From Psammoneis japonica (taxonomy: Eukaryota): 33,477 nt of DNA. A program made the translations under genes and the position numbers. The stretch lies in assembly GCA_008632985.1 (NCBI GenBank), contig QPGO01000090.1, forward strand, positions 310,001 through 343,477, in the 5' to 3' direction. Positions 84-33,477 of the stretch are shown piece after piece. Below the pieces are notes generated by a model. It did no database searches, was not told the origin of the DNA, and saw only the letters and a program-made list of their open reading frames with translations. The stretch's first letter is position 1, and each line of letters opens with the position of its first letter.

Positions 84-1796
84 TCATGTCCATGGGAGCC
101 AGTTCACATGCATGGCATTCCCAAGAACAATGTAGATTAAACAATAATACAGGACAAGGTGTCCCCTCTCAACCTTTGATTCGTTATCTTTGTCGGTCCC
201 CTGAATAAGGAGAGTTGTCATGTACCAGTAAATGGCAGGGCACGACGAGAAGATGAGTCGTGTCGAAACTTGTACGTGTGCGACCGTTGCTCCAACAAGG
301 GAAAAAGCTGATAATACCGCAAAGTGTGTCAGAACGTGAGGTCCCATCAAAAGGGCGCCTTCCTCGGAGGCCGACGCGGTTGAGGAGGGTGCTACCGAAG
401 CCTCCAACGCAAATATCGCCCATTGTATTATGTGAATGGGACGCTTCCAAGAAACTGCTTCGTATGCGCGCTCAGAGTTCGAGGGAGAAGTTTCTCTGGC
501 TACAAACGACTTCCAACTGGCGTGAATCCATGTCAGCGAACCAGAAAACCCCAACCACAAGACAGGGGTAGCTAGAAAAAGTTTGGAATTTGTTTCAATT
601 CATAATAGCGTAGAAATCCGACGTTCCAATGCTTACGTTGCACGTATCCGTAGAGAGAGAAGGGAAGTAGATTCGTTTCTTCTTGTGCCGTTGCGCACCA
701 AGACGGTTGCATTGTTGAGTCTGACAAACAATGAAACGAGTAGCCTCGCCAGTCATGAAAAATGACTGGTAGAGCGACAATCACTGCTAGCATCAAATAA
801 TATGCTGCTCTGACAAGTGACCATGTCAAAGATGTTCCGCTCTGAATCGACTTTAGAAACGTGGCAACATTCCATATCAAGAGCCACAGAGACGCCATTG
901 TCCCGTTTGAGCGGACAAAGGATGCGATTGTCCACAGGAGAGTAGCCGCCACTACATTGCCTCGAAACGCAACATTGTATCCCAGAAAGGTTAGAAAAGC
1001 AAAGGATGATTCCGAGTAGGCTGTCGAAAAGAAGACGCTAGCCGGATTGATGCAAAAGAGAACGGCGCAGACTAGAGCATGGTGAAGACAGCGTTGCACC
1101 TCGGTGGGAGTCAAGGTGCTTGGGTCATTCGAGGTGTTTCGTGCCGCCACTCTATACGTCAAATCATGCAACACCAATGATGTCATTACGAACAAGATGA
1201 AATTGACAAGGATGGCTGCCAACACCGATACCCCTTCAAACGATGGTGGTAGGGCTACACCAGGAATGATCCACACCAAGAACAAGGCGGTGTAACGAAT
1301 CATCAATGGAAACAGCGGGAAAAAGGCATGTGCCTGTTCCGACAGGACAAAAAGATCGTCATTTTCACAAGTCTTGTCGTCTCCGCAATGGCTTTCCACA
1401 TCCACCAGAACGGGTATTGGTTTCCGCGCATCCGGATGCACCGCAAGTCTCAGAAAACGAGCAGCGTCCCATCTTGTAAAGGGCGTCAGCATAACATTGT
1501 AGATTTGTGTTAAGAATTTTGACGACTCCATGTGCGTTGTATCTGTGGCGCACTCCCTGAACAATGGATCCCAATGCCGGTCGTGGTGTGCTCGTTTGTC
1601 ACAAGCGTCTCCGTGGAGGCAAAAGCACGGGGGACCGTCGTTGAGCGGAGGTCGAAGCGAAGTACGTCTTTCCCGGGGTCAAAAAAGTCGCCAACAACAG
1701 CAGCTGAAGCAACCATACCCAAACAGATCACAAGACGTGATGCTATTGAAAATCGAACTATAAATGTCGGGAATCTTTCATTGAATCGGACGGCAT
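84..1796 (-). CDS. PIGV: GPI mannosyltransferase 2 (PIG-V/GPI18), split by three apparent 1-nt deletions (~1762, ~1645, ~577)
   Basis: Motifs 'FSIASRL', 'FTRWDAARFL', 'HAFFPLFP', 'FCINPASVFFSTAYSES', 'YVQRKHWNVGFLRYYELKQIPNF', 'HVQVSTRL', 'HVNWLPWT*' lie across ORFs 1510-1731, 572-1564 and 84-560. Adding one base at each junction (two A-runs; the ~1645 site is only approximately placed) joins them into one frame. Confidence 0.88.
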
Positions 1797-1996
1797 TTTA
1801 GCAGCCACTGCCGGAGATTCGTCATGATGAGCCTTTTACTGTGCCGTAGGAAGAGAGTCAATTCTGTTTCGCAACCTTAAGGGATTGTTCTAAGCTGCAA
1901 TGTCGAGCTCAATATCTATTGCCAACAAGCAACCATCAACTCTGGGTGCCACCTCATATCTTTTGCTCATGGTGGTGCCGCACTCTCCATCACTCG

Positions 1997-2017
1997 CTCG
2001 CTTCTCGCTTCTCGCTT
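1997..2017 (+). repeat. (CTCGCTT)x3 short tandem repeat at the left edge of the Copia remnant
   Basis: ctcgcttctcgcttctcgctt read directly. Confidence 0.8.
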
Positions 2018-2039
2018 CCTCGGTGTAGTCACGAGTCGA

Positions 2040-4220
2040 ATCACGGATGACCCTCTGTGTCAGGTGTCAGGCGGTCTCCACAGCTGTGACTGCAGCAGCG
2101 CATCCACACACAGCAATCACCAAAATGGAAGCAAAGAAACAGAGGCAATTCGCTTGTTCAGTGGCCAAGAAAAAAAAACACAGAAGGGAAAGATTGTGAG
2201 GTGCACGCAGAAGGAATGCACTCAAGGCATGCATCTGGCGAGGTCCGCTGAAGATGTGGCACGCAACGACTTCAGCAAAGAAGAGCTGAAGCTGGGAATG
2301 GAGATGAGGACAGCAATGCCAAAAGATGACAAATCAGACTGCCAGGAAATGTTGCTGCAGAAACAACAAAAGGAAAGGGAGCTGGAGTTCCAGCACAAGG
2401 CAAAGCTTCATGACTGCAATGACAAAGTGAGGCAGTTCAAAAAGAGCAAGATTGCAGCACTTGCCAAGACATTGGATGAGACTGCTGCACCAAGCAAATG
2501 AAACAGAGAGTGCAAGCTGATCCCACCCATGCAAAGATTGGGGACAATCTGATTGGCAGCAGGAAACTGGATGCCAGGGGACAAAATCATGTGCAGAAAT
2601 GAGATGAAAAGATGTCTTGTTGGTGGATGGTGACAATGCCAGCGCAGATGGCTGCCACCAGATCTGATTGATCTGCCCATTGAAGCCAAAGCAGAGGAAC
2701 TGCATGGCGTGGATTGCAGCTGGTCAACAATCAACCAGAGACAAGCATGAACCAAGTCAATGAAGACTTTGGTGTGCAGATGAAATCATCCTTGACAATG
2801 GTCCAACCCCCTCAGCGTGGCAGCTGGCCGAAGACCAGTGCACAATGTGTGCAGCTGGCAAAGGTCAAGACAGACCTTTCCATGAGTGCAGGAGCAGACA
2901 CTTTAGACAAGGACTGCACCATGCCTGGATGGGGGATGTGAAGCTTGGATCACAGAACGCAGCAGCAAACATTTTAAGTTTGAAGGATGTGAAGAGCAAG
3001 TGTCGTGTTGCACATGACAACTGAGTGGTGGATGAGTTGCAGTTGCTGGAGGAGAAGACCAGCAAGAGAGCTGCGGTGTTCAAAGTTGATGACATTCTTG
3101 GACTGCATGCCTTTGAACCAAGCAAGAAGTTCTTTGACTGCACAAAGAACTCCAAGAAAGCAAGTTTCATGTGAGCATGCTGTGTCTAAGACAGAGAAGA
3201 AGCTCAACAAGAAGAGCAACAAGAGCAACAAGAAGTGCAGGAGTGCATCCAGTCATTCTGATGGTGGAGCAGGACTCTGCAGGCTGCTCCAAGAGGGCCA
3301 AGCAAGCACTCAGGCTGTGCTGCAAGGCTGGAATCCCCAGCGTGAGAGATTGAAGCTGTTTTTGCAATCAAACCAGGTGAAGAATCTGTTCATGGCACCT
3401 GAAAACATGGACAAAATGGTGGACAATCAGGGGGCACCTGTTGACATGCTGAAAAGAAAGACCAAACACCCACATCAATCCCATGACATGACAACATTGT
3501 TGCAATCTCACCTGAGACATGTGAGAACAGAGAGAAGGTGCAACCCCACTCTGTGCTGACACATTGTGAAAGCAAGCAGAGTGAAGATCCTGCATGTGGT
3601 TGTCATGACAATCAAGTGTCAATCAAGTGCAAAACTGCAATCCAAGAAAACATGCTGATGTGTGCAACACATTGGACACGACACTGCGCCAATGCAACAT
3701 GGCTTTGTTCAAGCAGATTGACTTTGTTGAGTGCAATCCTGGGTTCAAGCTGTCTGCAAATGCCACCAGCAACCATGTTCCTGAAGTTGAACAAAGTGTC
3801 AAGACCATCAAGGAGCAAACTGGAGCCACAGTGCACCACATGCGGGTGAGGCAATGCCCAAGCTGATGTGCAAGTGTGCCATGATCAAGAATGCCATGAT
3901 GGCAAGCATGTGCCCACAAAAGAAAAAATCTTGTCTGATGCATGCAGTCCACACACTGTCATGCAAAGAAGAAACCTTGACCATGACAAGCACTTTGCAC
4001 ATGGATTTGGCACATTTGTCGGACTCCTGTTCAACATTGAACACAATGGACATGCATGGTGTTGACAGTGCACACCTGCAACCACATCTTGATGTTCCCA
4101 AAGGCAGTCACTGCACAATGAACCTGCACACAGACAAGCAGCTGAATCCCTGCAAGTGCACTGCCACACCCCTGACCAGTTCTTGATGAACTGACAAAGT
4201 TGAGGATGAGGCCAGCCATT
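2040..4220 (+). mobile_element. Degenerate, 3'-truncated Ty1/Copia LTR retrotransposon of the diatom CoDi type (gag, protease, pre-integrase, integrase; no RT/RNase H seen)
   Basis: Collinear frame-hopping remnants: 'MPGWG..ANILSLKDVKSKCRVAHD' (~2920-3018, protease region), 'RAKQALRLCCKAGIPSVRD/LKLFLQSNQVKN..GAPVDMLKRKT' (~3293-3463, GAG-pre-integrase), 'TLDTTLRQCNMALFKQIDFVECNPGFK', 'HVPEVEQSVKTIKEQ' (from 3774), 'SDACSPHTVMQRRNLDHDKHF..FGTFV', 'NTMD..AHLQP..GSHCTMNLHT'. These match the order and wording of diatom Copia polyproteins as recalled. Confidence 0.85.
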
Positions 4221-7200
4221 TTCCTTTGGATCTTTGCAGTTGAAACTTGCTCTCACAGCAACACATCTGAAGGTCAAGAAAAGCCTTGACCTGCCAGCAA
4301 CCCATTCCTCACTTCCTTGTTCAGGCACCTGGAGAACTGGATCTTGTTTTTCTCATGTGCAACTGAAAGATGCATGGTGACATCCACTGAAGTGCCAGTT
4401 GTTTGAACACAAAGAGAAGGACTCTTTTTGTCTGATGCAGAGGCAAATTTTGATGTGCTCCAGCTCCAGGTGTGACCTCACAGTGCTGAACTGTGACATT
4501 GAAAGTGTTGTGAGACATGCCACATGTTGCACGTGCACATTTCTGCATGACTTTGGTGGAATTTTGCATCATTCTTTTGCAGTGCAGTTGTTGAGCTGTT
4601 CATCAAACAATTCTTTGAAGATGTCTGCAGAATGGCACAGGCACAGATGGAATTTTCAAAAGTTTTGGCTGTGCAGACCTTTGATGTGCCACAAACTTGG
4701 TTGGTTGTTCAAATGTAAAAGGGCTGGAGCATGTTTTCTTTTCCTCCATTTGCCTTCCAGGGACTTGGCTTCTGCCAGTGTTCTTCAGCCACAGTGCTGG
4801 CAAAGAAAGAGAAAGACCAAGTTCCCAGTTTTTTGCAAATCAGTGCAACAGCTGCTCAAAAGCTTCAGGGGGAGGAGGACAATTGAGAACCTGGTTGTCA
4901 ACAACTTTGGCTGCAGAGATGACTGGGTCAGGGCAGTTTTCTCTAAAGTCACAACAAGAGAGGGGACCACTTGGTCTTGGGAAGAAGCTTGATGGCAGGA
5001 AAATGTGGGTCATGTTGCTGGCATTGAAAAAATGAGTTCCTTGGTCACTCCAGGCACACAGACAAGGGTGCTCCAAGAATGTTCTCAGGCAAATGACTGT
5101 GCAAGACACTGCAGTTGAAGATTGTCATCATTGGACAATGGCATTTGACAACACAGAAACAAAGGGGTCAAGCAGTTTGAACATGGGCCCCATTTTGAAA
5201 GTGAGCCTTTCATGCAGAAAGCACAAAATCCAAAGCTCCATCATCTCAATGGAAAAGAAGTGCTGCAATGTGTCCACAGACATGGTTGCAGGTGAACATT
5301 TAAAGACAAAGCAACTGGCGGTCGAATGTTCAGTGTCAATGACCACACAACAGAAAAGTGGTCAATCAATTGACCAGGAGTCAATCACGAGGCAGATCTA
5401 AATCCAGAATGTCATGTTTGGTCACACAAAGCAATTTGTGTCAAGTCCCATGGCCTTCCAAATTCATTGGACACTGTTTTGTGTGCAAAGACCACTTGCA
5501 ATTTTGGTCATTTTGAAAGTGGTCATCCCCAAACCACAACTTCATCTTGTCTGTGTGCCTCCAGTCTGGGTGAGGGCAGGGCAGGGGAGTGACACAGATG
5601 GATGCTGGTCAAGCCAACATTTGCTTGTGATTTTTTTGGAATCATGGTGGGTGCCACTGCTTTTCAAAGAGGACCTGCACAGGGCTTGGGTGGCTTCCTT
5701 GGTTGATTGACAAAAAGTTCTTCAATGACACAGAGCCAGGCCCCCACAAGCAACCACCGAGAGATGATCTTGGACAAAATGTTAAAAGTGTTGCGGAGGA
5801 CAGGAACGACTGGATGGCAGAAATGAGCTGAGTGCAAAGGCAAAGCCGCAAACATCATTGGACATGATGCCATGCATTCTTTCAATTTCTTGCACATTCA
5901 ACACTGGCAGGGCTTGCTTTTTGGTGCTGCATGTGTCCACTCTTGGCCAAGGAATCTGAGAAAAGGCCTCAACTGAGCTGCAGGCCAGGGGTCATCTGCA
6001 AGAAACAATGTTCCTGCAATCATCCCCACCTTCTTGCACAGCTGCACTCAGCTCACTCCAAAGCAGATCAAGCAGAATGCCGTGGCCTGTCAGCAGCAAC
6101 AAACCGGGGAAATGGCACACTCCTCATGAGAGCAGCATCCCAGCTAGAAACACTTGATGGCACAACATCATGACATCAAGTGTTGGGTTTTAAAAGTTCT
6201 GTTTGAGGCTTGCCAAGTCAACAGTGTCTTGGAAAAGATGTGTCACATCACTTGCATTTTTTGCACAGACAAAACAACTGGACCTGGGAAACCTCTCCTG
6301 TCACACACAGTTAGAGTGTTTCCTTGGTGTCTGCTTGTAACTGAGAAATGGTTCACTTTGCCACACACCACTTGCCTCAAATGACCAAACCAGCCATGAA
6401 AGAAAAGGCATGAGCCAACGCCACCAACAAGGCCACCAAAGGCTTCATCTGGGATGCAAAAAATGAACCAATCATTTGTTGTGTCTGGGGCAAAAATTTG
6501 CTCTGCAAAGTTTGACTGAGAACAGCCCACATCATTTTGTGAACAGCCATCATGTCCAAAATCCTGTGCTGCCTGCAAGCTCAACCCACAATCCATCTTT
6601 TTGAGTTGTTGCTGAGATCTGGCCTGAAATCTGCCTTGCTGGCAGAGCATGCAACAATTGCAGGGAACAGTGTGGCTGCATGAGAGAGAGAGAAAGAGAG
6701 CATGTGCAGGATCCTTTGACTGTGAGTCAACAAGTGTTTCTGTGCCTGTCAAAGCCGCTGTCAACAACAGAGTGGTCTGCGTGCAATTGTGAATGTCCCC
6801 TTCCCTTGCTCTGACACATGTGATTTTTTCTAGCCAGGCATCAACAAGAGACAAATCTTCCTGTTGGAATGATGGAAAACACCCCTGACAGATCAACTTG
6901 TGCCTGTCACACATTGAGCCAAGAACAGCAGGACGAACCCAGCACTTCGCCAGTTCTGCATCCCAGCATTTTTAACAAATGGTTTTGAATGGTCAGGGCT
7001 TGGGGCTTTTGGGTCAGGGGCCAGGGAGTGGAACTTTTAGCAAAGCTCCTGTTTGGGATGACATTAAAAGCAGGTGTGACTGATCTAACAGTTTATCTGT
7101 GACATGACCGAGTCAACCCATGAGGAGTTGGCGCCCTGGGATGAAGTCGCTATTCTCAGAACAGCCACCTTGGAAGGTGTAACAGAGATTGAGCTGATGG

Positions 7201-7330
7201 CCAACCCAAGCACAAAAAGAAGAGCATAAAAAGATTTGGACCAAACAGTGGAGAACAGTGCATGAAATGTTCTTGCTTGTCTCATGTGTGAGCACATCGC
7301 CATCAACAGCCTTGTGATCCAACACGACAC
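2050..7330. other. Island 1: CpG- and TpA-depleted, TpG/CpA-rich DNA
   Basis: Hand count 2041-7080: 16 TA and ~35 CG in ~5 kb, versus 23 TA and ~32 CG in bases 1-600. No TA between ~3190 and ~4715. Confidence 0.95.
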
Positions 7331-7391
7331 GGTCCCACTTGCCTGCACAATTGTTGTGTGACTCTTTTTGGCAATTTTTCTCCGGCGCCAT
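4300..7391 (-). mobile_element. Degenerate Crypton-like (Ndc10/GCR1-type tyrosine recombinase) element or pseudogene
   Basis: Minus-strand remnants in the expected order: ATG at 7391, 'LVGGVGSCLFFHGW' (cf. CPVGALAFYLFxRF), 'SDVTHLFQ' (VTHLFQ at 6229-6246; HxxR if CAA derives from CGA), 'ALMRSVPFP' at 6107-6133 (cf. MRSIAGFP), and C-terminal 'PSVPVPF..FKELFDEQ' (~4590-4650). Pattern recognition only; left boundary approximate. Confidence 0.45.
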
Positions 7392-7554
7392 CGTCCTGGG
7401 TTCGCGGAAAGACGACGCTTTCTCCTATTGTCGACACGACTCTCATCATGGTGGATACTCTGCCGCACAAAAAATATCGAACAGAGGCTTCCGGCCGCTA
7501 CGCAAAGTTGTGAACCCTAAGTATCCATGTTACCGAAAGACTAATAACCCAAAC

Positions 7555-7571
7555 AACACACACACACACAC
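7555..7571 (+). repeat. (CA)n microsatellite just downstream of the CWC15 stop
   Basis: aacacacacacacacac. Confidence 0.85.
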
Positions 7572-7601
7572 CATTCGAATTCCTTTTGTTCCTTCTTGTT
7601 T

Positions 7602-8538
7602 TCAACGAACGAACTTGTTGAGGAAGCGCTTGTGAAAGTCGTTACGAACGGTATCATTGATGAACCGCTTCTTAAGTTCGGGTTCTCCCTTGGCCTGATT
7701 TCGAAAGACGACATCATCATTCCACCTTCGCTTCATCTTTCCAGAAGAGGCGGCGCCGGCATTAAGCAGAGGATTTCCCATGAGTGCAGCTTCTTCAAAC
7801 CTCCCCTCTTCTTCTTTTGCTTCCTGCAGATGCAAAGGGGGCAGAAACAGTGGGACTTGATTGGCTTACGGAACAAAGCAAACACCACAGTTTCTCAAAG
7901 TTCGTACTTACCTCTGTTTCAGCAGCAGCCTTTGCAGCTTCCCGCTCGGCACGTATTTTTGCAAGCTCCGCCTGAAGGGCCTCTTCATCGTCGTCATCAT
8001 CATCCTCGCTGGATTCCGAGTCTGAAGCATCCAAGTCAGAATCATCACTTCCCACGTCGTCATTCCACCCGTCCGAGTCGGGGCCATCCCCGCCATCGTC
8101 ATCAGCGTCATCGTACTTTTTTCGTATTCTGGTAATTCATTTCAAAGAGATAACAGAGAACACAATTAGTTACAAAAAGAACAAGAAAGACGAGACATGC
8201 ACAGCCGTAGAGGCGATAGTTAGCAGCAATACGACTGAACTCACTTCTCTTCGTCTACATCTGCCGTTTGTTTCAATAGCCTCCGCCGCCCTTCTTCTTC
8301 AATCTCGGGTACAATTTTCGTTTGGGTGGCGCAACCTTGGCTTCGGCTTGTTCCAGCTTACGAAGGGATTCTTCGAGCGCTTCCTTCTTGTCAATGACTT
8401 GAGACCGAAGCTTGAGTTTGGTATGGGCAGCAGCGTCCAGAGCCGACCGCGACGCGGAAGGAGCACCACCAGCGGTCCATCCACCTCCTGAGCTTGACCT
8501 ACAGCGGCCTTCCATGTCGGTCGATGTGCGGTTGTCAT
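7602..8538 (-). CDS. CWC15: Spliceosome-associated protein Cwc15; introns 8129-8244 and 7824-7911; two apparent 1-nt deletions (~8485, ~8315)
   Basis: 'MTTAHRPTW', 'HTKLKLR', 'ALQAELAKIRAER', 'GNPLLN', 'KRRWNDDVVFRNQA', 'FINDTVRNDFHKRFLNKFVR'. GT-AG introns restore the frame. Confidence 0.93.
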
Positions 8539-12532: not shown

Positions 12533-12972
12533 TCTCAGATTTTGCAGTTTTGTGGCCTCCTGTTGATGTTACGCGTAAATCGCCATGGTCACAGCCTCCC
12601 GCTTGCTGCCGCTGTTCACCACGGTCAAAGCAGCGAAATAATGCGAAAATAAAAAAATTGTTGCTCATTCGCCTGTTAGTCGTCAGTGTTGAAAGCTTGA
12701 CGCGAGTTAGCTATTTTATATATTATCTACGGCACTGAGGTATTTCATACCTATCGGTGTTCGCGCGCATCCGAGTCGTGGTTCTTCGTGCCACCACAGC
12801 GAAGCGCGAAAACGCTCACACTAAACTCGTGATTCACTGTCTTCTGCTTATAATTTTTTTGTTATCTTTATGAGAACTTCGCGGTGTGTTTCGGCTGGCT
12901 GGGGGTCGCACGACTCTAACCGCGTTTGCATAAATGAGAGCATAAGATTTTTCATTCGAAAGTGAACCAACA

Positions 12973-14703
12973 ATGATACAACTCCCGACTGCACATTCGC
13001 CACTCAATCATCTCTCTGTCAATCAGATGCCACACGGGATCCCATCGAGAAACAGTCCCCAAAGCCAATTGAAGAAAGGAGCTCCAGCGAAAAGAAGGGG
13101 GCGAGCGTCCAACCTCTATCAGGCGATTTCACAGCCGACTACTTCCCGTGATACCAGGCACGATACAAGCAACCACGACCAAAGTAGTTCACAGTCAAGA
13201 TCTCCATTGCTCCTATCAAGAACCAGGAAAACCCCAGAACACTCTTCAAACCGGGTCCGTAGATCGAGTCGATCGCAGGACGATGGATCGGACCAGCCCA
13301 TGGTTCCGGGCCGTCGTGTCGGCCAGCCAAAGACGCTTTTGAGTCCGAGGTACGAACATTCGATTTCTTCTTCTCCTGTAAGCCTGGTGCCTACTTCGTC
13401 TCTGTCATCCGCCAGCAGCGATGAGGACGAGTCAACTGTAGACGGCGCATTTGTCTACAATCACAACGGCCAAAAGATCGTACATGTGGAAAGCAATGAA
13501 ATCAACCATGACAAAAGTAAAAACTCACACGGACCAGGCAACGATTCGTACGAGGGTGAGAGTGTCGACTCTGAAGAAGACGACTCTGTCTCCACAAGCA
13601 CCGAAACAAGCACCGAAAGCAGCCGCGATGAGGACGACTCAACCATAGAAGGCGCCTTCGGCAACCGTAACGTACGTGTTGAAAGCAATGATACGACCAA
13701 TGATCACCGTCAATGGTCGAATGGAGTAGACAACGATTCCTATGAGGAGGAGAGTGTAGACTCTGAAGAGGAGGACTCTGTCACCGCGAGCCCGACCGCA
13801 ACGCCGGTAAAACAGCAAGATCTCCGATCGGCCTTTAGAAGCACTCCGCGAGAGCACTCTTCAGAGTTTGAAGCGCTGTGGGCACGAGACCATGAAATGC
13901 CAAACTCAAAGGTGGCGGTATCGATGGACCATGCAAACGACGCTGATTGTCCGACGATACGAGAAGACACTGACGTTCCCCTCAATATCGTTGTGAATAT
14001 CATCGAATCTGAAGTGGAAAGCATCAGATCGTCAATCACGGCTGTGCTGGAAGAGGACGAAGTACCCGAAGCTCCGATGTTGGATAGTCAATCCCCTCCA
14101 CAAGAAAGACGCGTTGCATGTTCAAGGCCAAAGCAATACAAAATCAAGACTCCTCCCGCGCATAAAACGTCCTTTCTTGAAGGAAATCTCAGCAAAATGG
14201 GGACCGACTACTTTGGTCAAAGACCGCGCTTTGTGGAATCCAAAACGGGTGGGAAGCAGCTGTCCATGACTTCCAACCGAGACCCCCGAAAAGTGATTGA
14301 TAAGCACCTACGGACGTTGGGAACGGCTGTTGGACAGTCGCTTTCCCTAAACACCCGGAATGCCTGTTATTTCTATTTTGAAGACCTTCTGGTTAACGTG
14401 CACATTCCAAAGGATGATGAGAACGTGTTTGTGATTAGTTCCACTGTGCATCAAGCCGTTCCTGCTCAAGACAGCAATGTGATTCTTCAAGATATGATCA
14501 AATCAGAGTACTTTGGTCGCGACGCAGAAATGCCAACCATTACCATGAAGAACCAATTGCAACTCAACGTGTCTTGTACCGTGGGCGTACAGCAAACATA
14601 TGTGGAGTTCAAGAAATGTATGAAAGAGTTTAGGGACATGGTGATGGGCATGAAAGAACGGATAAGGGCGTCAAAGTTTCAGAATACACAATGTATTCGT
14701 TGA
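12973..14703 (+). CDS. Hypothetical protein: long S/D/E-rich disordered region plus C-terminal CesT/Tir-chaperone-like domain
   Basis: Intact 576-aa ORF. Last ~130 aa ('IDKHLRTLGTAVGQSLSLNTRNACYFYF..VHIPKDDENVFVISSTV..FKKCMKEFRDMV') resemble the type III chaperone fold pattern. Confidence 0.7.
   Translation: MIQLPTAHSPLNHLSVNQMPHGIPSRNSPQSQLKKGAPAKRRGRASNLYQAISQPTTSRDTRHDTSNHDQSSSQSRSPLLLSRTRKTPEHSSNRVRRSSRSQDDGSDQPMVPGRRVGQPKTLLSPRYEHSISSSPVSLVPTSSLSSASSDEDESTVDGAFVYNHNGQKIVHVESNEINHDKSKNSHGPGNDSYEGESVDSEEDDSVSTSTETSTESSRDEDDSTIEGAFGNRNVRVESNDTTNDHRQWSNGVDNDSYEEESVDSEEEDSVTASPTATPVKQQDLRSAFRSTPREHSSEFEALWARDHEMPNSKVAVSMDHANDADCPTIREDTDVPLNIVVNIIESEVESIRSSITAVLEEDEVPEAPMLDSQSPPQERRVACSRPKQYKIKTPPAHKTSFLEGNLSKMGTDYFGQRPRFVESKTGGKQLSMTSNRDPRKVIDKHLRTLGTAVGQSLSLNTRNACYFYFEDLLVNVHIPKDDENVFVISSTVHQAVPAQDSNVILQDMIKSEYFGRDAEMPTITMKNQLQLNVSCTVGVQQTYVEFKKCMKEFRDMVMGMKERIRASKFQNTQCIR
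13414..13788 (+). repeat. Intragenic diverged tandem duplication (unit starts 13414 and 13621)
   Basis: SSDEDESTVDGAF..HVESNE..NDSYEGESVDSEEDDSVS versus SRDEDDSTIEGAF..RVESND..NDSYEEESVDSEEEDSVT. Confidence 0.9.
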
Positions 14704-14949
14704 TAATTGCATCTAAAGTTTACATATTTCTCTTGCCGTTCTGCTCTATAGTAGTGTCACGTAGTCAGGAGGAAATTTGAATTCCTAAAGATAGTCTACG
14801 GAAGACTTGAAGCGAGCGAATGAATGATTGAGACACCGCGCCGCCGCCGGTAAAGTCGTGGGTCGTCTGTCCAGCCAGCGACCCGGCATTGTCGGCTTCC
14901 GTCTACTCTCTAGAGTCGAAATTCTTTTCACGCCATGCGTTGACCCGCT

Positions 14950-16430
14950 GTTGAGGTGATCGCTTTGAACAGAACCGGTTGTGGACCTGTGCACTGTTGG
15001 AGCAGCAACTGCATTCTGGTCATCAAAGTTGGGTTGACTGTTGTGGAGTTGGGCACCCCCATGGTGTGCTGGTTTCTCCATCAAAAGGTGCTGCGAGGAG
15101 AGAAAACAGTCTTTTTCACAGCACTTGCCAGTGGCCCGGAGGCCCAGAAGGCAAAGTGTGGAAAAGCTTGCTTGGCGCTCGCTGGCGCCAATTGATGTGA
15201 AAAGAAGTGCTGGGTTGGGCAAACAATGACAAAAAAAGCAAAATGGCTGATTGTTTTTTTTTTTCAATGTGTTGAGTTGTTGTTTCTGGATTTTTTGGCG
15301 CCTTCTTGTTGCATGACCACAGCAAACAGCTTTGGTCACATGAGGCATGGTGTCAGCAGATGTCACAATCATTTGAGCACTGCAGAGAAATGCACACAGT
15401 TGCGGGTTTCTCTGTGCATGTGTGCATGTCTTTCTTCATTGATGTCCTTTGCTGCAGTTGACAGTGTGGATGAAAGGACCTGGAGACACTCATTTTCACC
15501 CTTGCCGCACACACACACCAAAAACAGCAACAGCACTTGACTGAGCAACTCATCAGGCCAGCTGGGAACTCCACCCATGATGAGGACCCAAGCAGGTGCT
15601 TGTTGCTTCCAACTGGTGTCTCTCACAAAACTGGGGATGTTTTGTAAATTTTGTGAATCTGGCATGAGAAATCAATGTGAGAAGGGCAGAGCACCCAGAG
15701 CAAAGCTTGTGTTCTCAGCCTTCCTGCTGCAGTGAGCAGCCAAGAGCATCTTGTAAGACTGTGGGAAGAACAGCAAAAAAACAAGAGCAAGAGCTCCCGC
15801 TGTGTGTCTGCTTGAACTCAATTGACAGCAGAAGCAGCTGGGTTGTTGGTGGCAAACAAAACAAGGGGCAGCAGCTTTCCTGTGACAGCCACATGTGGGG
15901 GGAGAGGGGGTGTTGGAGAAACCTGCCTGGCTCCAACAAAAACAAGAAGAGAGCAGCACGCACATTGTGCACAGAGCCGCAAATCTGTGGAAACAGATTT
16001 TTCAGTTTTTGAACCTTCGCTGTGAAGGTGCTGACAAGGAGATGTGCAAAGGCTCAGGCCAAGGTTGCTGACAATGGCACAGGTGGTGCACCCTGTGATT
16101 TGCAGGGACCAGGGGTGCTGTGGCATTGGGAGAGGAGGGTGGTCGGGGAAAATTCTTGGTGGTGGAGCAGGTGCGTGCACGGTGGTCAAGGAAAATTGGT
16201 GGTGGAACAGGTGTGCAAAGTGCTCTTGGCAATGGAAAAAAGAAAGAGGGAACCAAAGTGTGGACAGACGGTTGGAAAAGGGAGTTGTCGGTGGCGGTTG
16301 GGTGGCGGAGCAGAGGGGTTTCTTGATGTGCGGAGTGGTGGGTGGCTGGGTGGAGAGGGCCATGGCGAAGTTTAGGCTGAGGATTTGGGAGGCCCAGCTT
16401 TGGGATTGGCTGTGTGGTGGGAGATGCCGA
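14950..16430. other. Island 2: CpG/TpA-depleted unclassified (probably repeat-derived) DNA
   Basis: Only 3 TA found by hand (GTAA ~15644, GTAA ~15754, TTAG ~16373) in ~1.5 kb; CG sparse; CpG-rich flanks. Confidence 0.9.
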
Positions 16431-19328: not shown

Positions 19329-20954
19329 ATGAAGAAGTTACTGGCCTTGTTGGAAGTCTGTCTCTTGACACAAGTGACATCTTTTATCGCACCCTTGACT
19401 CCGTTGCCGCGTCGGCATGTCACTTTTCACGGTCCATTGTTAGGAGATGTACATTCTAGCTATCAAGGGGATGATCAAAATGAGGAAATGGCTGATAGCT
19501 CGCGTCGACGAGACTTTCTTTCATGGGGGGTTGCTTCAGCCGCAGCAACTCTGGTTGCTCAGCCTGCTTTGGCAGCAAGACCCAAGAACCTTTACCTAGT
19601 CAGAGGCAAGAACGCCACATCAACTGAGGTTGGAAGAGAGCCGGTCAAAGTTGAAACCAAGGCACTAAGCAGTGAAGAGTGTCTTCTCAAGCTCCTACCG
19701 GTGAAAAATCCTGTTTTTCGGACATTGGAAAAGAATATCAGATCACTGTCGTCGCTTCGAAAATCAGGTATGGTTGCATTTTCGGAGGTCGTTCTTTTGA
19801 CTGATTGATATGCTTTCGTTCCTTACGCTCTAGGCGACGTTGTTTTAAATCTTTAAGATAAGGATGCAGAAGCATGGAAAAATGCACAGAAAGACGCCGA
19901 AGCAGCGCTAAAGTTGCTTGACTCCAAACGAAACAGGCTAGAACCGGTGTTTAACCCCGAAGACAATTCTTTAATGCAAATTACGAAGGCAGAGAGAGGG
20001 GAACAACAAATCGAGTCCTTAAGAACAGAACTCGTAAAGCTAGTCAGATCGACATTTGAAAAGAACGAACAAGTGACTTTTGAACAGCAACGAACTGCCC
20101 TGCTGGCGCTCAATGAGGTTGGCGAGCTAATGGTCGAGTCGTTTCCTTATGAAGTTCCGGCGGAGGGTAAGTTTTCGTTTCTACCGCGCTTATTGGGTCG
20201 GACGAGAGTCACCTTTCGATTTAAACGTGGAAAAGAGATTCTGGGAAATGTGACAATGATAGCCGACGGTTATGCGGCACCGATTACAGCGGGAAACTTT
20301 GTCGATTTGTGCAATAGACAATTTTACACGGGGCTTCCAATCAAGACCTTTCGAAAGAAACTTGGCGTTACACAAACTATGATGGGAAGTTTTCGAGAGG
20401 GCGGCTTACTGGCATTAGAGAATGAGATAATCGAAACCGAAAGAGCGCCGGCAGTACCCATACCAATATTAGGATCGTTTCAAGAAGAAGGATTCTACGA
20501 TCCTCTTACAGCGAAGCCACGTCGAATTCCGTTGGAAATTCTTCGTCTTGACAAGTCTACGGGCATACCGGAGCTGTCGTACTCTCGGGACTTTTGGGAT
20601 CTACCAGAATCGGAAGCTAGTGTCGATATCCCACAGGTAAACAAGCCCGTTTTGAGCTTCGACATTCCGGGTCTGGTTGCATTTAACCATCCCGACAAAA
20701 ACGCTGACGGGGGATCCTCTGAATTCTTGAGTCTTCAAGAAGAGCTTATGACTGAAGACAAAACGAAGCTTCTAAATGGACAATACGCGCCGTTTGGATA
20801 CATTGTTGGTGGATACGATCTTTACCAATCACTGAAACCTGGTGATGTAATTGAATCTACGACAGTTAGTGAATGGGGCATCTTGAATCTTGTAAAGATA
20901 AGAGGTACGAGCTTTACTGACGTAATGCAAGGCGGCGGTGGCAACGAAGAATGA
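19329..20954 (+). CDS. Thylakoid-lumen cyclophilin-type PPIase (CYP37/CYP38/TLP40 family); intron 19768-19857
   Basis: Signal peptide with 'VTS-FIAP' (ASAFAP-like), twin-Arg 'SRRRDFL..PALA', then 'LPRLLGR', 'ADGYAAPITAGNFVDL', 'IPLEI', 'GSSEF', 'GQYAPFGYIV', 'LKPGDVI'. Confidence 0.88.
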
Positions 20955-27687: not shown

Positions 27688-28950
27688 TTAATCTTTAGAT
27701 GTCTTTTTTCTGTCTGATTTTGCCATTTTCTTTGCAAGAGCTATTTCTAATTCTTGGCTCTGCATGGCTACGGCCAAGGGATTGTCAGCTCTGGTGCTAG
27801 TAGTATTGTTCCTTGTTGACCTTGCTTGTAAAATGGTATCAATGGGCGTAACGCTTCCGCATTTACCGCAGTAAACGAGTTTTGCCTTGGATCCAACTTG
27901 CAGAAAGGTCTGGCAAGCGGGGCATTGGACTACTGTTGCGTTGCCCTTGGCGATTTGCTTCCAGGTGTGGTCTGTTCCACGAATGAGGAGTTTCTTGCCA
28001 TTGTATACGCCCACTTGCTGTTCACGCGTCGGACACTTCAATGGAGGATCATTTCTCGTTGTAGTATTTACTTTGAGATCTCGAGGAGCCGAAGATACAC
28101 TAGCCTTGTTTAAAGAAGGCTTGGTGGTGAGCTTATTGAGAGATGGAGGTTTAGTGGGTGCTGGTTTTCGTTTGTTCCTTGGAGGAGGAGATAGTGCGAT
28201 ATCTTCATCATTCTTTTCGGGGCGATTGTTGAGACGTTGTGATTCCTTAACCACATTCGAATATAGCGATTTAAGATCGTTGTTTTCGACAATGTTCTCG
28301 TGGTGTTTGCTGGAGGACGAAGTCTTTAGATCCCGTTGAGAAGCGGCAATCTGTGCCATAGCCTCTTGCTGCTCACGAAGAAACTCCGGATCATTCATAC
28401 AGTCTAAGAAACCGCCATCAGAATCATCCGATCCAGTTGTATTTACGCTGAAGTTAGTTGATAAAGATGCGGTGGTGCATGTTGCTTGGTCTTGAGCGTA
28501 AGAACTGGGTTGAGAAGCAGAAGAACCATGAAGCTCCTTGTCAGCACCACATGTGGATGATGAGCTGTTGAATTGCTCCATAATCTCCTGCTGTTGGCGA
28601 ATGAAATCCTCGTCTTCAAACAAGTTAACAAAACAAGTGTTGGAACTCATGTTCGTTGCATTTGCGCTTTCGTCTCCGTCATAGCTGCAGCTGCTGCTCA
28701 GCAGACTCGACGATGCCGCAGAATAGTGCTTCTTACGATCACCCCTGGCGGATGATTTGGAAACTTTCAAGGGTGAAAAGCTTGTACACTTTGCATCAAT
28801 ATTTCTTCTCGGCCTTCGGATCGGCTTAACGTCGCAATCCACAACAGTTCTTGGTACTTTTGAGTCACTTCCACTGCTGTCACGCCATGTCTTCGTAGTA
28901 TGGACCTGGTGTCTTTCGGGAGCTTCGTCTTTGTAAGTTGGAGATGCCAT
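27688..28950 (-). CDS. Hypothetical protein with C-terminal CxxC-x14-CxxC (LSD1-like) zinc finger; ORF open to 29040, probable start 28950
   Basis: Intact 450-aa ORF; 'QCPACQTFLQVGSKAKLVYCGKCGSV' at 27859-27924; two 'F..Q Q E.M.Q' helical repeats. Confidence 0.75.
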   Translation of the reverse strand: MASPTYKDEAPERHQVHTTKTWRDSSGSDSKVPRTVVDCDVKPIRRPRRNIDAKCTSFSPLKVSKSSARGDRKKHYSAASSSLLSSSCSYDGDESANATNMSSNTCFVNLFEDEDFIRQQQEIMEQFNSSSSTCGADKELHGSSASQPSSYAQDQATCTTASLSTNFSVNTTGSDDSDGGFLDCMNDPEFLREQQEAMAQIAASQRDLKTSSSSKHHENIVENNDLKSLYSNVVKESQRLNNRPEKNDEDIALSPPPRNKRKPAPTKPPSLNKLTTKPSLNKASVSSAPRDLKVNTTTRNDPPLKCPTREQQVGVYNGKKLLIRGTDHTWKQIAKGNATVVQCPACQTFLQVGSKAKLVYCGKCGSVTPIDTILQARSTRNNTTSTRADNPLAVAMQSQELEIALAKKMAKSDRKKTSKD

Positions 28951-29010
28951 TTCTATTAGCTGTAGATTGTGGCCGGAGTTTCCGTGACCTTCGACCTTGC
29001 CGTGAGAAAA

Positions 29011-30805
29011 GTGAAAGTGGTCGCGCAAATACCTTCGCATTTTGTGATGTTATGATGTGACTTGCGGGAATATCGAGATCGCGGTTACAAATCGAATTTT
29101 GTCATTTAAAATGAAACAAAAAGTGCGAACATTAAGTAAAATTGCAAGGGACATGCTAATAAGTAATTTTGAACTGATTTTCAATAGTAATTCGATTGCT
29201 TTTTTTATGCTTTTTCTTAAGAGACATAGATTCATTGGGATGACACGCTCGAACCATCAATTCGCAAAAAGACATGGAGTCGGGGGGCTGTACATCAAAC
29301 AACACAGTGTATGTAATGTAAGGTACAATTCTCAACGCGACATCCGACAACCTCCCATCTTGGTGGAGTGTGCCTGCAAAAAAGGCTGAAGGAATTTAAC
29401 TGTGGAGTGGCAGCAACTCGGAAACGAAAAAGAAAAAAAGAGAGAAAGAAGAGGAAAAGTCAAAAACAAAAGGGCCGGCACCACCAAGAAAAATGAGGCA
29501 GGAAAAATCCTGCTTGTTTGGTGCAGTTTTTCTGCACCAAAAGCTGACATTTGTTGCAGTTGTGTTGGAGTTTCACGACTTGCCGACCAGCAGCACATGT
29601 TCAGCCTCATCAACCCCAAACCCTGAACTCACTGTGTGGCTTGCAAACACATTGTCGGTGCTGTCAACCGCCGTTGCCATGTCAACTCGGGTGTGCAGAA
29701 ACTGGAAGTGTGAGAGCACAAAAAACCCACACAACTCAATCTGAGTTGCAGCACAAAAAATTTGCACATTGTCCACAATCACATCAGCATGTTTTCCACT
29801 GAAACTTTGTGCATCTGCACCATGAAAACCACCTCTGGCCTGATGCTCCAACACACTCCTTTGCACAAGCCGTCAACTGCTGACTTGCCGTGTGTGGTGC
29901 TGCACATGTCAAGCATCCGAGGGTGACACTTGGAACCCATGCCACCCAACACCATGTCAACCACTCTTCTGTTGATTCCCATGGGTGCATCTTCCACACT
30001 GCAAAAACTTTGTCTGTCTTTCCTGTGAAAACTGCCTCCAACCCCAATGTTCCAAAAGGTTGTGCTGCACTGGGTGTGCCATCGGCTGGATCAGGAGGAC
30101 TCAAGCAGGTCTCTCTTGATGCCCCTGGATGACACTCTCCCTGCAGGTCCCCCCTGCACACAAGTCAACTGCTGTCCAAATCTTGTGTGAGACCCTGTGA
30201 CCAGGTTTTTGCTTTTTCTGAGCATGCACAGCCACAGCCAGTCTTGCAACAAGCAGCGCTGTCCAGACAACTCATTTCCTGCAGCCCAGTTGCCAGCTGT
30301 TGCTGTCATGCAATGGCCCTTTTTTACCCAGCACAGGTCTGTGTTTTTTGCTCCTGGTCTGGTGTCATTTTTCCCTTGCTTCTGCTCTTTTCATTCTGGC
30401 TGTTGCTTGGGTTTTTTGTGCATTGACAAAACTTCTTCTGGCAGAGCTTTTCTTCAACCCAGCTTTTGTTGCTGGCTTGCCCCACTCCATTTGTCCTTTT
30501 TGCAACTTTTTTTGTCAAAAAAGCTTGGCGCATGTCTCAATCTGCCTGTCTTTGTTGCTCCACCCCTTGCGCTGTTTCTCCATGCTCAGAAGAGCTGTGC
30601 TCAACACAGCTGTGACCTTTTGCATGCATTTTTTGAGCCCATCTTGAGCAGCTCCCCAATCTTCTTATTTGCCTCACTCAACTCATGGCTGAAATCATGT
30701 CCTGACAACAGCCTTGTTGGCTGTTCTCTGATGCCAATGAGCCAAAAGGCCCCATGTCTGTTGTGTTGGTGGCAAAGTTGGCAAGGTTGTTGTTTGTGCT
30801 CACCC
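29011..30805 (+). repeat. Direct tandem duplication, unit A (CpG/TpA-retaining ~330-bp head, converted body)
   Basis: Shared blocks with unit B: gaaagtggtcgcgc, gcgggaatatcgagatcgcggtta, caattctcaacgcgacatccgaca, tgtggagtggcagcaactcgga, ttttctgcaccaaaagctgacattt, ttcattctggctgttgcttggg, ttgcctcactcaactcatggct. Confidence 0.92.
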
Positions 30806-30808
30806 AAC
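29345..30808. other. Island 3: CpG/TpA-depleted DNA
   Basis: 3 TA by hand count (TTAA ~29397, TTAC ~30325, TTAT ~30666) in ~1.46 kb. Confidence 0.92.
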
Positions 30809-32226
30809 GTGAAAAGTGGTCGCGCGAATACGTTCGGATTTTGTGACTCGCGGGAATATCGAGATCGCGGTTATAAATCGAAGTTTGTCATTTAACGAAA
30901 CAAAAAGTGCGAACACACTGGACATGCTGATAATTGATTTGAACTGTTCGTGTCGATAGTAACTAGTGCGTTTTTTATGTTTTATCTTAAAAGAGATATA
31001 GAATCATAGCGCTGACACGCTCGAAGCATCAATTCGTAAAAAGACATCATTTGAGTCTGGGGGCTGTAGGCCTTACAGCAGCACGGCACAACACGCACGA
31101 AGGGTGGTGTTTCAATTCTCAACGCGACATCCGACAGACCTCCAATCTTGGCCCTGTAAAAAATGCTCAAGGAATTTTAATTCAACTGTGGAGTGGCAGC
31201 AACTCGGAGAAGAGAAAGAAAAAAGAGAGAAAGAGGGAAAAGCAAAAAGAAAAGGGCTGGCATCACCAAGAGAAATGAGGCAGAGTGTGCAACACACATC
31301 ATGGCAGGGCACCACCACCACCAGGAAGGGAGCAAACTTGGGTCACATGTCGCCTGTGTGGCAAAATCCCACTTGTTTCATGCACTTTTTCTGCACCAAA
31401 AGCTGACATTTTTGGTGGTTGCACTGCTGGGCTGGTGTGCCATCATTGTCCAGGTCTGTGGGGTGGGCTCCAAGTGGGCAAGTCTCTCAGTGCTGGGTGA
31501 CTCTCTCCCCACAGATCTTCCTCCCTGAACATGAGCCAACTGCCCAAATCTTGTGTGGCCCTGTGGTCAGGCTCCTGCTTGTTTTGAGCATGCACAGCCA
31601 CAGTTGCTCTTGCAACAAGCAGCACTGTCCAGACAACTCATTGTTTGTGGCACCCTGTAAAATGCTGCTGCTGCTTCTGCTGGCACTGCTCTGACAACAT
31701 TGCCAGTTGTTGCCATTGTGTGCAATTGCCAGTTTTTCTGCCCACAGGTCTGTGTTGTTTGCTCCCAGCCTGGCTTCATTTTCCTTGTCAGTGCCCTGCT
31801 GCAAACCATGGCATGCTTCTGTGCCTTTCATTCTGGCTGTTGCTTGGGCTCTTTTTGTTGCACACCAGCTGACAAACTTCTTCTGGCAGAGCTCTTCTTC
31901 AACCCAGCTTTTGTTGATGGCTGCTTGCCCCCCTCTATTTTCCCTTTCTTCAACTCTTTTTTTTTTAACAAGCTCTGTGCATGTCTCTGTCTGGCAACCT
32001 GCTTTGTTGCTCCACCCCCCTCATGTGGTTTCTCTGTGCGCACCACCCCCCATTTCCAGCAGAGTGGGTGCCCTCAACACTGTTGTGACCTTTTGCCCTC
32101 ATTCTGCAAGACCTTGATCAGCTCCCCAATCTTGTTTGCCTCACTCAACTCATGGCTAAAGTGTTCATCTGTCATGGTGGCAAGGCAGTTGGCAAGGCAG
32201 TTGGCAAGGTTGTTTGTGCTTGCACC
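30809..32226 (+). repeat. Direct tandem duplication, unit B (converted sequence continues beyond it to the window end)
   Basis: Same blocks in the same order as 29011-30805. Confidence 0.92.
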
Positions 32227-33477
32227 AGTGGCAAGAAGGCAGCCACACATGCATGTGGTGTGAGCATTTTTGCACACTCTTCCTTGTTTCCAACACACAG
32301 CAACAGGAATTGTTGTCTTAAAACAGCAGGGGCACCTCATTTCTGGTTTGGTCCAAACAAGCTGTGGGGAGTTCAGAGATGGGCAAAAACGCAACTTTTG
32401 GTTGGAAGGGGTTGTTGTGTTGACTCTCCTGTTGCTGGTGTCTCTGCTCACAAGAAACTCTTTCCTCAGCTCTCTGCCCCACAACAAATGCACCACTGTT
32501 GCATCTCCTGGTTGTGCTGTGCTCACCACCTTTTTGTGGGTTTTTGTTGAGGTGGTCTCAAAGACCATTGTGTGAGCCACATGTTCATCACTCATCATGG
32601 CGTGTGCTGGCATGCTGGCTGGCTTCTGTTCTTGACAATTCTGTTTTTATTTTTCTGCACTGCAAAGGGTTCAGCAAATCAGAGGGTTTTGACAGTGTCA
32701 ACAAAAACTGTCTTGAGTCACCCTGTTCAAATGTCCATGAACTGCAAGACACAACCAAACTTGGGGATGCCTTCTTAAAACTTGTTGTGCTGTGCCAAGG
32801 GTCTGGCATCAAAAGATTGTCAGATTGCCTTTGGTGGCTAAGTTCAAAAAAGCAAGTCCTTTCCAAGATTTGAGTTTTGCATGATTTTTGTGCTGGTTCA
32901 CACCTTGGCCCCTGCTTCCTCTGAATGGGTGTTTTGGTGTGCAGAAGAGGAGTTTGGCATGTGTTTGCTGAGACAACAGAAGCTGAGTCATGCACAGGGA
33001 GCACAACCTTGTGAAACATCAATGAGAGGAAAATTTGTGAAAAGTCACCTCAGCCACCAAATGCTCACCCCAAAACTGCTTTCTCTGCCATCAGGTTTGT
33101 GAAAATTCTCCTGACCCTTCCTCCCCATGTGCAACTCATGCCAAACTTGCACCAACCACCAATCTGCCAGACATCCCCATTTACTGCAGCTCTCAACCAG
33201 AAATCATTTTTCACAATGCCAAAACCCTGCACCAACAATTGTTGTCTTTCTCAGCAGTGTTGCATCACAACAACTGCAGCATGCACAGAGCAGAGTCTGG
33301 CCACATGTCTCGGATGACTTCATGTGATCTGCTGATCTGTGCTGCAAAAAACAGCTGTGCAGAGTGTGCTCCAAGAAAGAGATTTTTGATTGTGGCAAAA
33401 GCCAGCTTTTCTTCCTCCTGTGCAGCTGTGCAGCAGTTGACAAAGGTCATTTGTTTGCATTGTGGAGGTGCACCCCC
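31140..33477. other. Island 4: CpG/TpA-depleted DNA, runs off the window
   Basis: About 11 TA and very few CG by hand count in ~2.3 kb. Confidence 0.92.
32179..32209 (+). repeat. 12-bp tandem repeat (GGCAAGGCAGTT)x2.6
   Basis: ggcaaggcagttggcaaggcagttggcaagg. Confidence 0.85.

Follow-up and report, generated by a model that had tools for sequence, protein, structure and literature searches.

Surviving TpA and CpG sites follow a flank rule in islands of a diatom genome from which both dinucleotides have nearly vanished

The stretch of nuclear DNA analyzed here (the window: 33,477 bp of the diatom Psammoneis japonica; assembly GCA_008632985.1, contig QPGO01000090.1, positions 310,001 to 343,477) consists of ordinary intron-poor genes interspersed with four islands, together 10,350 bases, in which the dinucleotides TpA and CpG are nearly absent. 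Every long non-genic stretch of the window is an island, while the short spacers of promoter or untranslated-region size are not. The genes are those of a diatom. The cyclophilin open reading frame (ORF) at 19857-20954 has 382 relatives. Those with a name come exclusively from diatoms (Fragilaria crotonensis, Seminavis robusta, Attheya, Mayamaea and Fistulifera; 50-55% identity), and the best match without a name is 74% identical. The relatives of an exostosin-like ORF give the same picture. None of five ORF products has an exact counterpart in the protein collection searched. Island 1 (2027-7085) has an observed/expected ratio (o/e) of about 0.03-0.1 for TA, about 0.1 for CG and about 1.7-2.1 for CA and TG. 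Island 2 lies at 14912-16372. Islands 3 (29398-30828) and 4 (31079-33477, continuing past the end of the window) belong to a tandem duplication of a unit of about 1.8 kb (unit A, approximately 29015-30800, and unit B, 30805-32160): island 3 is the island portion of unit A, and the initial 1.1 kb or so of island 4 is the island portion of unit B.

Summed over the islands, TA occurs 31 times (o/e 0.04, compared with 0.56 in the background, i.e., the rest of the window) and CG 97 times (o/e 0.16, compared with 1.01). This depletion is matched by a surplus of CA (1136 occurrences; o/e 1.76 versus 1.11) and TG (1176 occurrences; o/e 1.83 versus 1.13), and converting all background TA and CG in silico brings CA/TG to an o/e of 1.9, near the island values. 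The G+C content is 0.483 in islands and 0.475 in the background, and AA/TT is not depleted (o/e 1.30 versus 1.19). The fraction of pyrimidine-purine (YR) steps is also the same, 0.237 in 18 island sub-windows and 0.235 in 45 background sub-windows (p = 0.92). When these steps are divided by the purine or pyrimidine class of their flanks, the island and background densities per kb are 63.9 and 63.3 for R-YR-R, and 59.4 and 63.7, 57.1 and 52.0, and 55.5 and 56.6 for the other three classes. Such equality leaves scant room for transversions; the purine/pyrimidine skeleton is unchanged, and the changes are therefore transitions. There are further shifts: among the purine-pyrimidine steps AT falls from 0.260 to 0.199 (p = 4e-5) and GC rises from 0.245 to 0.297, and GA/TC is depleted (p = 1.5e-7). 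They may reflect a weaker A>G change at A-Y together with C>T at T-C, or a different ancestral composition.

Which TA sites have survived? We scored each remaining TA within the island bounds given above by its two flanks, as YTAR, as RTAY or as a half-site in which only one flank fits YTAR. A first-pass annotation had proposed that YTAR survives and RTAY never does. Its 16 TA between 2900 and 7070, which are all that island 1 retains, are exactly as it listed them: TTAA 6, TTAG 3, CTAA 3, CTAG 2 and GTAA 2, i.e., 14 YTAR and two GTAA half-sites. Island 2 keeps two TA (both GTAA), island 3 two (TTAC and TTAT) and island 4 eleven (six YTAR and five half-sites). Over all four islands the annotation had 33 survivors (22 YTAR, 11 half-sites, no RTAY); our recount gives 31 (20, 11 and 0). 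The difference of two YTAR probably stems from the TA at 29397 (TTAA) and at 7086 (CTAA), each one base beyond an island bound. The 11 half-sites are GTAA (6), TTAC (2), TTAT (2) and CTAT (1). The observation itself is thus confirmed. Chance had been put at a quarter each for YTAR and RTAY, which is only a rough figure, since the nulls we measured range from 17 to 35% for YTAR and from 17 to 29% for RTAY.

The rule holds against each of these nulls. The background of the window contains 158 YTAR, 478 half-sites and 258 RTAY among 894 TA (17/54/29%; χ2 test for the 31 survivors, p = 1e-11). Restricting the background to non-ORF DNA (45/135/51 of 231), which frees it of the bias due to in-frame stop codons in coding sequence, gives P = 5.5e-8 for at least 20 YTAR and P = 4.4e-4 for no RTAY. 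A first-order Markov null on the island dinucleotides predicts 35/48/17% (χ2 p = 9e-4; P = 0.0035 for no RTAY). If TA had been regenerated from the NCAN and NTGN of the islands by transitions, the p-value is 9e-8, and if by transversions, 2e-7. No pair of survivors is 65% or more identical over 26 nt, so the sites are independent of one another. Splitting every TA into two half-sites, one per strand, and classing each by its 3′ neighbor, we find relative survivals of 2.54 for A, 1.03 for G, 0.47 for C and 0.17 for T (62 island half-sites versus 1,788 background half-sites; χ2 p = 1e-10). The typical survivor sits at a junction of a T-run and an A-run, at the end of the former or the start of the latter. 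Corrected for such tracts within the window, the rule still holds, on small numbers: the nine survivors with neither a preceding TT nor a following AA comprise five YTAR, four half-sites and no RTAY, compared with 14% YTAR and 34% RTAY in the non-tract background (p = 0.004 and 0.024, respectively).

The far more numerous converted sites can be examined as well. Since transitions keep the purine or pyrimidine class of a base, a converted site still shows the ancestral class of its flanks. If the A changes in TAY (TAY>TGY, or RTA>RCA on the other strand), an RTAR site should become RCAR and not RTGR, and a YTAY site should become YTGY and not YCAY. The islands contain 394 RCAR versus 229 RTGR and 375 YTGY versus 212 YCAY; the corresponding background counts are 472 versus 391 and 469 versus 399. 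The predicted products (RCAR and YTGY) have gained 33.9 per kb in the islands and the opposite ones (RTGR and YCAY) 9.0 per kb, and the predicted products make up 0.632 of the total in islands and 0.546 in the background (Mann-Whitney U test, p = 1.5e-4). RCAR exceeds RTGR in 17 of 18 full 500-bp island sub-windows (background: 24 of 45), and YTGY exceeds YCAY in 16 of 18 (background: 25 of 45). The asymmetry appears in purine-rich and pyrimidine-rich sub-windows alike, which argues for a local flank effect and not a regional strand bias. Nor do CA and TG cluster by strand at island sites with symmetric flanks (runs-test z from -0.3 to -1.0). The half-site source pools amount to 19.6 per kb for TA and 26.9 per kb for CG, and a gain of 9.0 per kb for the opposite products is below what a 50:50 resolution of either pool would supply, which implies that the half-sites of both TA and CG are converted directionally.

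The flank rule is not confined to TpA; CpG obeys the same logic. In the island cores (41 sites, 82 half-sites), the relative survival of CpG by 5′ neighbor is 1.68 for G, 1.26 for C, 0.85 for A and 0.50 for T (p = 0.0012), so that TCG is the most depleted context and GCG the best survivor. The context RCGY accounts for 15 of the 41 surviving CG, compared with 20% expected (p = 0.011). The rule as originally proposed is thereby amended: it is graded, it extends to the +2 and +3 positions (see below) and it is not specific to TpA. The accompanying interpretation is supported in part: half-site survival and directional products both speak for TAY as the preferred target, hit on either strand, and against drift, while its sequence-specific enzymology is an inference.

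The edges of the islands show the two losses apart. At 2027-2270, 14912-14980, 16141-16372 and 29398-29700 there are zones with no TA in which CG is kept (o/e 0.53-1.44). The first is the left margin of island 1, where CpG is mostly retained (11 CG; o/e 0.67), and the next two are the margins of island 2. The right flank of island 1 (7086-7400) is only partly converted (TA o/e 0.24, CG 0.49, CA/TG 1.5-1.7); by eye, its five TA comprise one YTAR, four half-sites and no RTAY. The right margin of island 2 also contains a G-rich degenerate repeat of the GGTGG type (16080-16360; GC skew 0.40).

The tandem units allow a comparison between paralogs. The two units are about 80% alike, with many indels. 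Each begins with a head of approximately 270-380 bp of normal composition in which TA and CG are retained; the head of unit A (29015-29397) lies upstream of the minus-strand ORF at 27688-29049, and the head of unit B (30805-31078) is its duplicate (77% alike), likewise unconverted. In the island part, CA in one unit faces TG in the other at 10 of 653 dinucleotide positions, while in the heads there are no such discordances among 254. CA/TG is the commonest double difference in the island part (10 of 49, where about two are expected by an estimate from the transition rate) and is missing from the 12 double differences of the heads. Transitions and transversions number 86 and 49 in the island part and 20 and 27 in the heads; only 29 single transitions between the units are usable for an analysis of context. 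The process has thus continued after the tandem duplication, and it is confined to the island part. Since the duplicated heads were spared, targeting would seem to follow chromatin state or region and not duplication as such. Within the heads, 11 of the 20 transitions fall at sites where TA or CG faces TG or CA.

Copy number and tandem duplication indicate that the islands are repeat-derived DNA. The left part of island 1 (2011-5587) is one of many copies of a repeat family: its summed contig depth is 347-7158, compared with about 60 for single-copy flanks, with hot spots at 4055-4565 (7158) and 5077-5587 (1262), while 5588-7120 is at single-copy depth at a likeness threshold of 80%. A total of 536 contigs match the family, mostly less than 95% alike, and their differences comprise 224 transition places and 119 transversion places. 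The 25 best-supported differences between island 1 and other genomic copies include three CA/TG pairs at adjacent positions (3982/3, 4682/3 and 4920/1), and in both half-site cases among them the other copies carry the form predicted by the rule. The window can also be compared with a contig of the public run X1 over the single-copy island part (5472-7201). The five differences are all transitions, three of them at sites where TA or CG faces TG or CA (5808, 6549 and 7152), a hint that the process may still be generating polymorphism. Contigs of two further runs, X2 and X3, match the copy-number hot spots only at about 4459-4513, and the match of X3, 55 bases long, has 11 differences. As the flanks of these contigs contain CG and TA, a normally composed and possibly active relative may be transcribed. 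Run X2, though labeled "DNA?", covers genes very unevenly and has spliced contigs, and so behaves like RNA; it leaves islands 1 and 2 bare except for the contig at about 4455-4513, and we do not use this lack of cover as evidence. Over 7570-8422, an X2 contig skips 7823-7910 and 8129-8244, which marks two introns. The long ORF at 12946-14703 contains an internal repeat (13479-13604 and 13671-13795, 76% alike) that encodes acidic segments rich in Ser, Asp and Glu.

Searches for coding or structural remnants gave nothing credible. With all six frames translated and stops written as X, Pfam finds no family in island 1 and only two chance-level matches in islands 2-4 (E-values 0.22 and 0.66, far below the cut-offs). 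A phmmer search with 3850-4989 (380 amino acids) against 1.84 billion representative sequences returned no match, and when 3609-3863 was compared with longer proteins through a word index, none of 20 candidates proved a match. Integrase- or transposase-like motifs picked out by eye (2764-3171, 3609-3863, 3850-4062) are unsupported by these searches and are to be disregarded. Rfam yields no match at gathering thresholds over the whole window, terminal repeats around island 1 are limited to short chance-like matches, and a degenerate pattern taken from the high-copy core has no match in the metagenomes scanned.

The reading we favor, and regard as somewhat better than an even bet, is that silent repeat-derived DNA has undergone hypermutation of a deamination type, with A>G at TAY and C>T at YCG. 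The islands would be silent intergenic DNA of once-normal composition in which transitions turned nearly all TpA and CpG into CpA and TpG with G+C preserved. At each site the immediate flank would pick which of the two possible bases changes. The mutated base, A in TA and C in CG, would be the one that has a pyrimidine, best T, on its outer side. This gives TAY>TGY and YCG>YTG, which read RTA>RCA and CGR>CAR on the opposite strand. A YTAR site reads TAR on both strands; it would be a poor substrate twice over and would survive, especially where a T-run meets an A-run. In chemical terms, A would be deaminated to I, which is read as G; a 5′ T would be strictly required, and the 3′ preference would be graded T>C>G>A. 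C, probably as 5-methylcytosine (5mC), would become U or T at CpG, with a 5′ T preferred. The data above show the specificity, locality, symmetry and timing of the changes; the deamination chemistry and its enzymatic nature we infer. The enzyme would be aimed at silenced chromatin, and a protein of the TadA/ADAT2 type, or another with the deaminase fold (HxE...PCxxC), possibly active on both A and C, is a candidate.

Several points weigh against this reading. All gains and losses presuppose that the islands once matched the composition of their neighbors, which are mostly coding. The survivors number only 31 and come from a single window. Their enrichment in A reaches the +2 (2.2x) and +3 (1.7x) positions, which could reflect A-tract structure or regeneration of TA and not the nearest-neighbor preference of an enzyme. 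The shares of TA and CG in the product asymmetry are not fully separable. At four edges the TA-free zone exceeds the CG-poor zone by 70-300 bp, consistent with two processes or with a single process of two efficiencies. No island has a detectable protein domain, and the argument for a transposon origin is copy number only. Finally, the A motif reported for amphioxus ADAT2 on DNA is GAA and not TAY (PMC10354150).

The A-rich surroundings raise the question of whether the survivors are informative about the target at all. TA could have been erased unselectively and then regenerated, or shielded by the structure of A- and T-tracts, and in favor of this are the enrichment of A from +1 (2.5x) through +3 and the 22 of 31 survivors that lie in TT-TA or TA-AA contexts. 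We think it unlikely, however, because the regeneration nulls built on island tetranucleotides predict 20-24% RTAY and 23-25% YTAR where 0% and 65% are observed (p = 1e-7), because the rule holds in the nine non-tract sites, and because the directional products show the flank dependence at hundreds of sites independently of the survivors. Error-prone patch repair would explain the same losses by another route: deaminated cytosine or methylcytosine at CpG would call in mismatch repair, followed by A>G errors of a Pol eta-like polymerase at WA (W, A or T). TA is a hot spot of Pol eta, the losses of TA and CG coincide in space, and the patch-like reach of TA loss past the CG-poor core at the four edges is what such repair would leave. 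But WA includes AA, and AA/TT is not depleted in the islands. Pol eta also produces many transversions at A, and the unchanged total of YR steps leaves scant room for them at about 38 TA per kb; moreover, the conversion of TA is about 96% complete. These features make patch repair rather improbable, and they count against the link to Pol eta drawn in the first-pass annotation. Its link to TadA, like that to Pol eta, remains speculation.

A single enzyme could in principle account for exactly the two self-complementary YpR steps and their reciprocal pyrimidine transitions if a TET/JBP-like dioxygenase oxidized the T of TpA and the 5mC of CpG, with mispairing of the formyl products giving T>C and C>T. 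The flank preferences of the two pyrimidines are opposite, however (5′ purine for T>C, 5′ pyrimidine for C>T), which is awkward for one enzyme, while deamination would place the two changes on one and the same strand, the pyrimidine-flanked one; we give oxidation little credence. Extreme avoidance of dinucleotides can be selected in some viruses, and avoidance of TA and CG for a function (escape from a nuclease or sensor, or a structural role) might be imagined here. It is most improbable in islands that are non-coding, without Pfam or Rfam match, degenerate (paralogs about 80% alike with many indels) and partly high-copy, and the CA/TG flips between copies and the graded edges fit mutation and not function. 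The least credible explanation is an artefact of sequencing or assembly, such as base-calling errors at modified bases, although heavily modified DNA can give systematic errors on some platforms. Islands 1 and 2 recur, with few differences, in the k-mer contigs of X1 (about 60x, up to 315 kb long), where their depth equals that of the neighboring genes; a single contig spans 8489-16179 with two other letters. An assembly error is thereby excluded. X1 is possibly the source sample of the window itself, however, and would then share any base-calling bias of the whole platform. Miscalls on mixed strands should in any case create TA and CG and not remove them.

How does deamination-type hypermutation of the islands compare with known systems? 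The islands work like repeat-induced point mutation (RIP) and its CpG-type variants, yet they lack features that define RIP. As with RIP in Neurospora and other ascomycetes, they show near-saturating, context-specific transitions in silent repeats, a skew in dinucleotides and the destruction of coding capacity. RIP is limited to C:G>T:A, with CpA as its main target, and so creates TpA and lowers G+C. In the islands, in contrast, TpA is erased, which requires A:T>G:C changes, CpA is in surplus and G+C has not fallen. RIP also acts along the entire length of a duplication, so the sparing of the duplicated heads may be a further difference; within island 1, 2011-5587 is multi-copy and 5588-7120 is at single-copy depth. 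RIP takes place before meiosis and depends on a protein of the RID/DNMT4 type. Diatoms have DNMT4 proteins related to RID, whose function is given as unknown (PMC9998398). CpG-type hypermutation in basidiomycetes (TCG>TTG) and the decay of 5mC share with the islands the loss of CpG, the surplus of TpG and CpA and the position of TCG as the most mutable context. These processes leave TpA alone, however, and explain neither its o/e of 0.04 nor the TA-free margins that keep CG. A related algal metagenome contig (L008, 16500-19100) provides a contrast: with CpG at an o/e of 0.09-0.2, TG at up to 2.1 and TA at 0.44-0.59, it is a case of ordinary CpG-only decay that spares TpA.

Hyperediting of retroelement RNA by ADAR also leaves clusters of A>G in repeats, with a 5′ U tolerated or preferred. 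ADAR is strand-asymmetric, whereas most sub-windows of the islands have CA and TG in rough balance (1136 versus 1176 overall), and the two do not cluster. ADAR prefers a 3′ G, whereas mutability in the islands follows T>C>G>A at the 3′ position and CpG is hit as well. The WA mutagenesis of Pol eta differs in the respects already described, AA/TT and the YR total being undiminished. The footprint also resembles that of TadA/ADAT2, where one fold acts on both A and C. According to PMC10354150, amphioxus ADAT2/3 deaminates both bases in DNA, its C motif is TCG, and A34 of its tRNA substrate is always preceded by U33, in agreement with the need for T before A in the islands. Here too the target follows T, with A>G confined to TA, and among CpG contexts depletion is strongest at TCG; the agreement is one of footprint only. 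The activities of this family, including the engineered adenine base editors, have been shown in vitro or in E. coli and not as a genome-wide process of an organism's own.

Is the trait widespread? We counted a sub-window as jointly depleted when its o/e was below 0.2 for TA and below 0.5 for CG. This holds for 89 of 330 sub-windows of the present stretch and for none of 3,655 in 63 metagenome loci that surround the orthologous cyclophilin gene (394 kb in total). The comparison weakly suggests that the trait is lineage-restricted, as these metagenome contigs are gene-rich and seldom hold repeats. Full-text literature searches, with subscription journals outside their coverage, and term look-ups in diatom papers turned up no description of joint TpA and CpG erasure. 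There is a substantial chance that adenine-directed DNA editing, if it underlies the islands, is categorically new.

It is tempting to go further and hypothesize that one or more natural DNA deaminases act on silenced chromatin in this diatom, as a RIP-like defense of new chemistry. Either one dual A/C enzyme, of the TadA/ADAT2 or another deaminase fold, or a pair would edit the A in T-A-Y and the C in Y-C-G, whichever strand they lie on. Both self-complementary YpR steps would be erased in this way, with G+C and the purine/pyrimidine skeleton left intact. We regard this as a possibility only, with the balance tilted against it. Known repeat-directed hypermutation (RIP, its CpG-type variants and APOBEC) alters C:G only, whereas here A:T at TpA is equally fully converted, under a flank rule that mirrors the one at CpG. 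The saturation with CA and TG over an intact purine/pyrimidine skeleton explains how such repeats escape homology-based annotation. The context rule would be the footprint of an enzyme, and it supplies a specificity, T-A-Y and T-C-G, with which candidate deaminases can be assayed. If the process is enzymatic, it amounts to natural adenine deamination in genomic DNA and bears on genome defense, the silencing of diatom repeats and base editing. If the defense hypothesis is true, the islands would be the product of the first natural genome-scale A:T>G:C hypermutation system of DNA, a natural counterpart of the adenine base editors.

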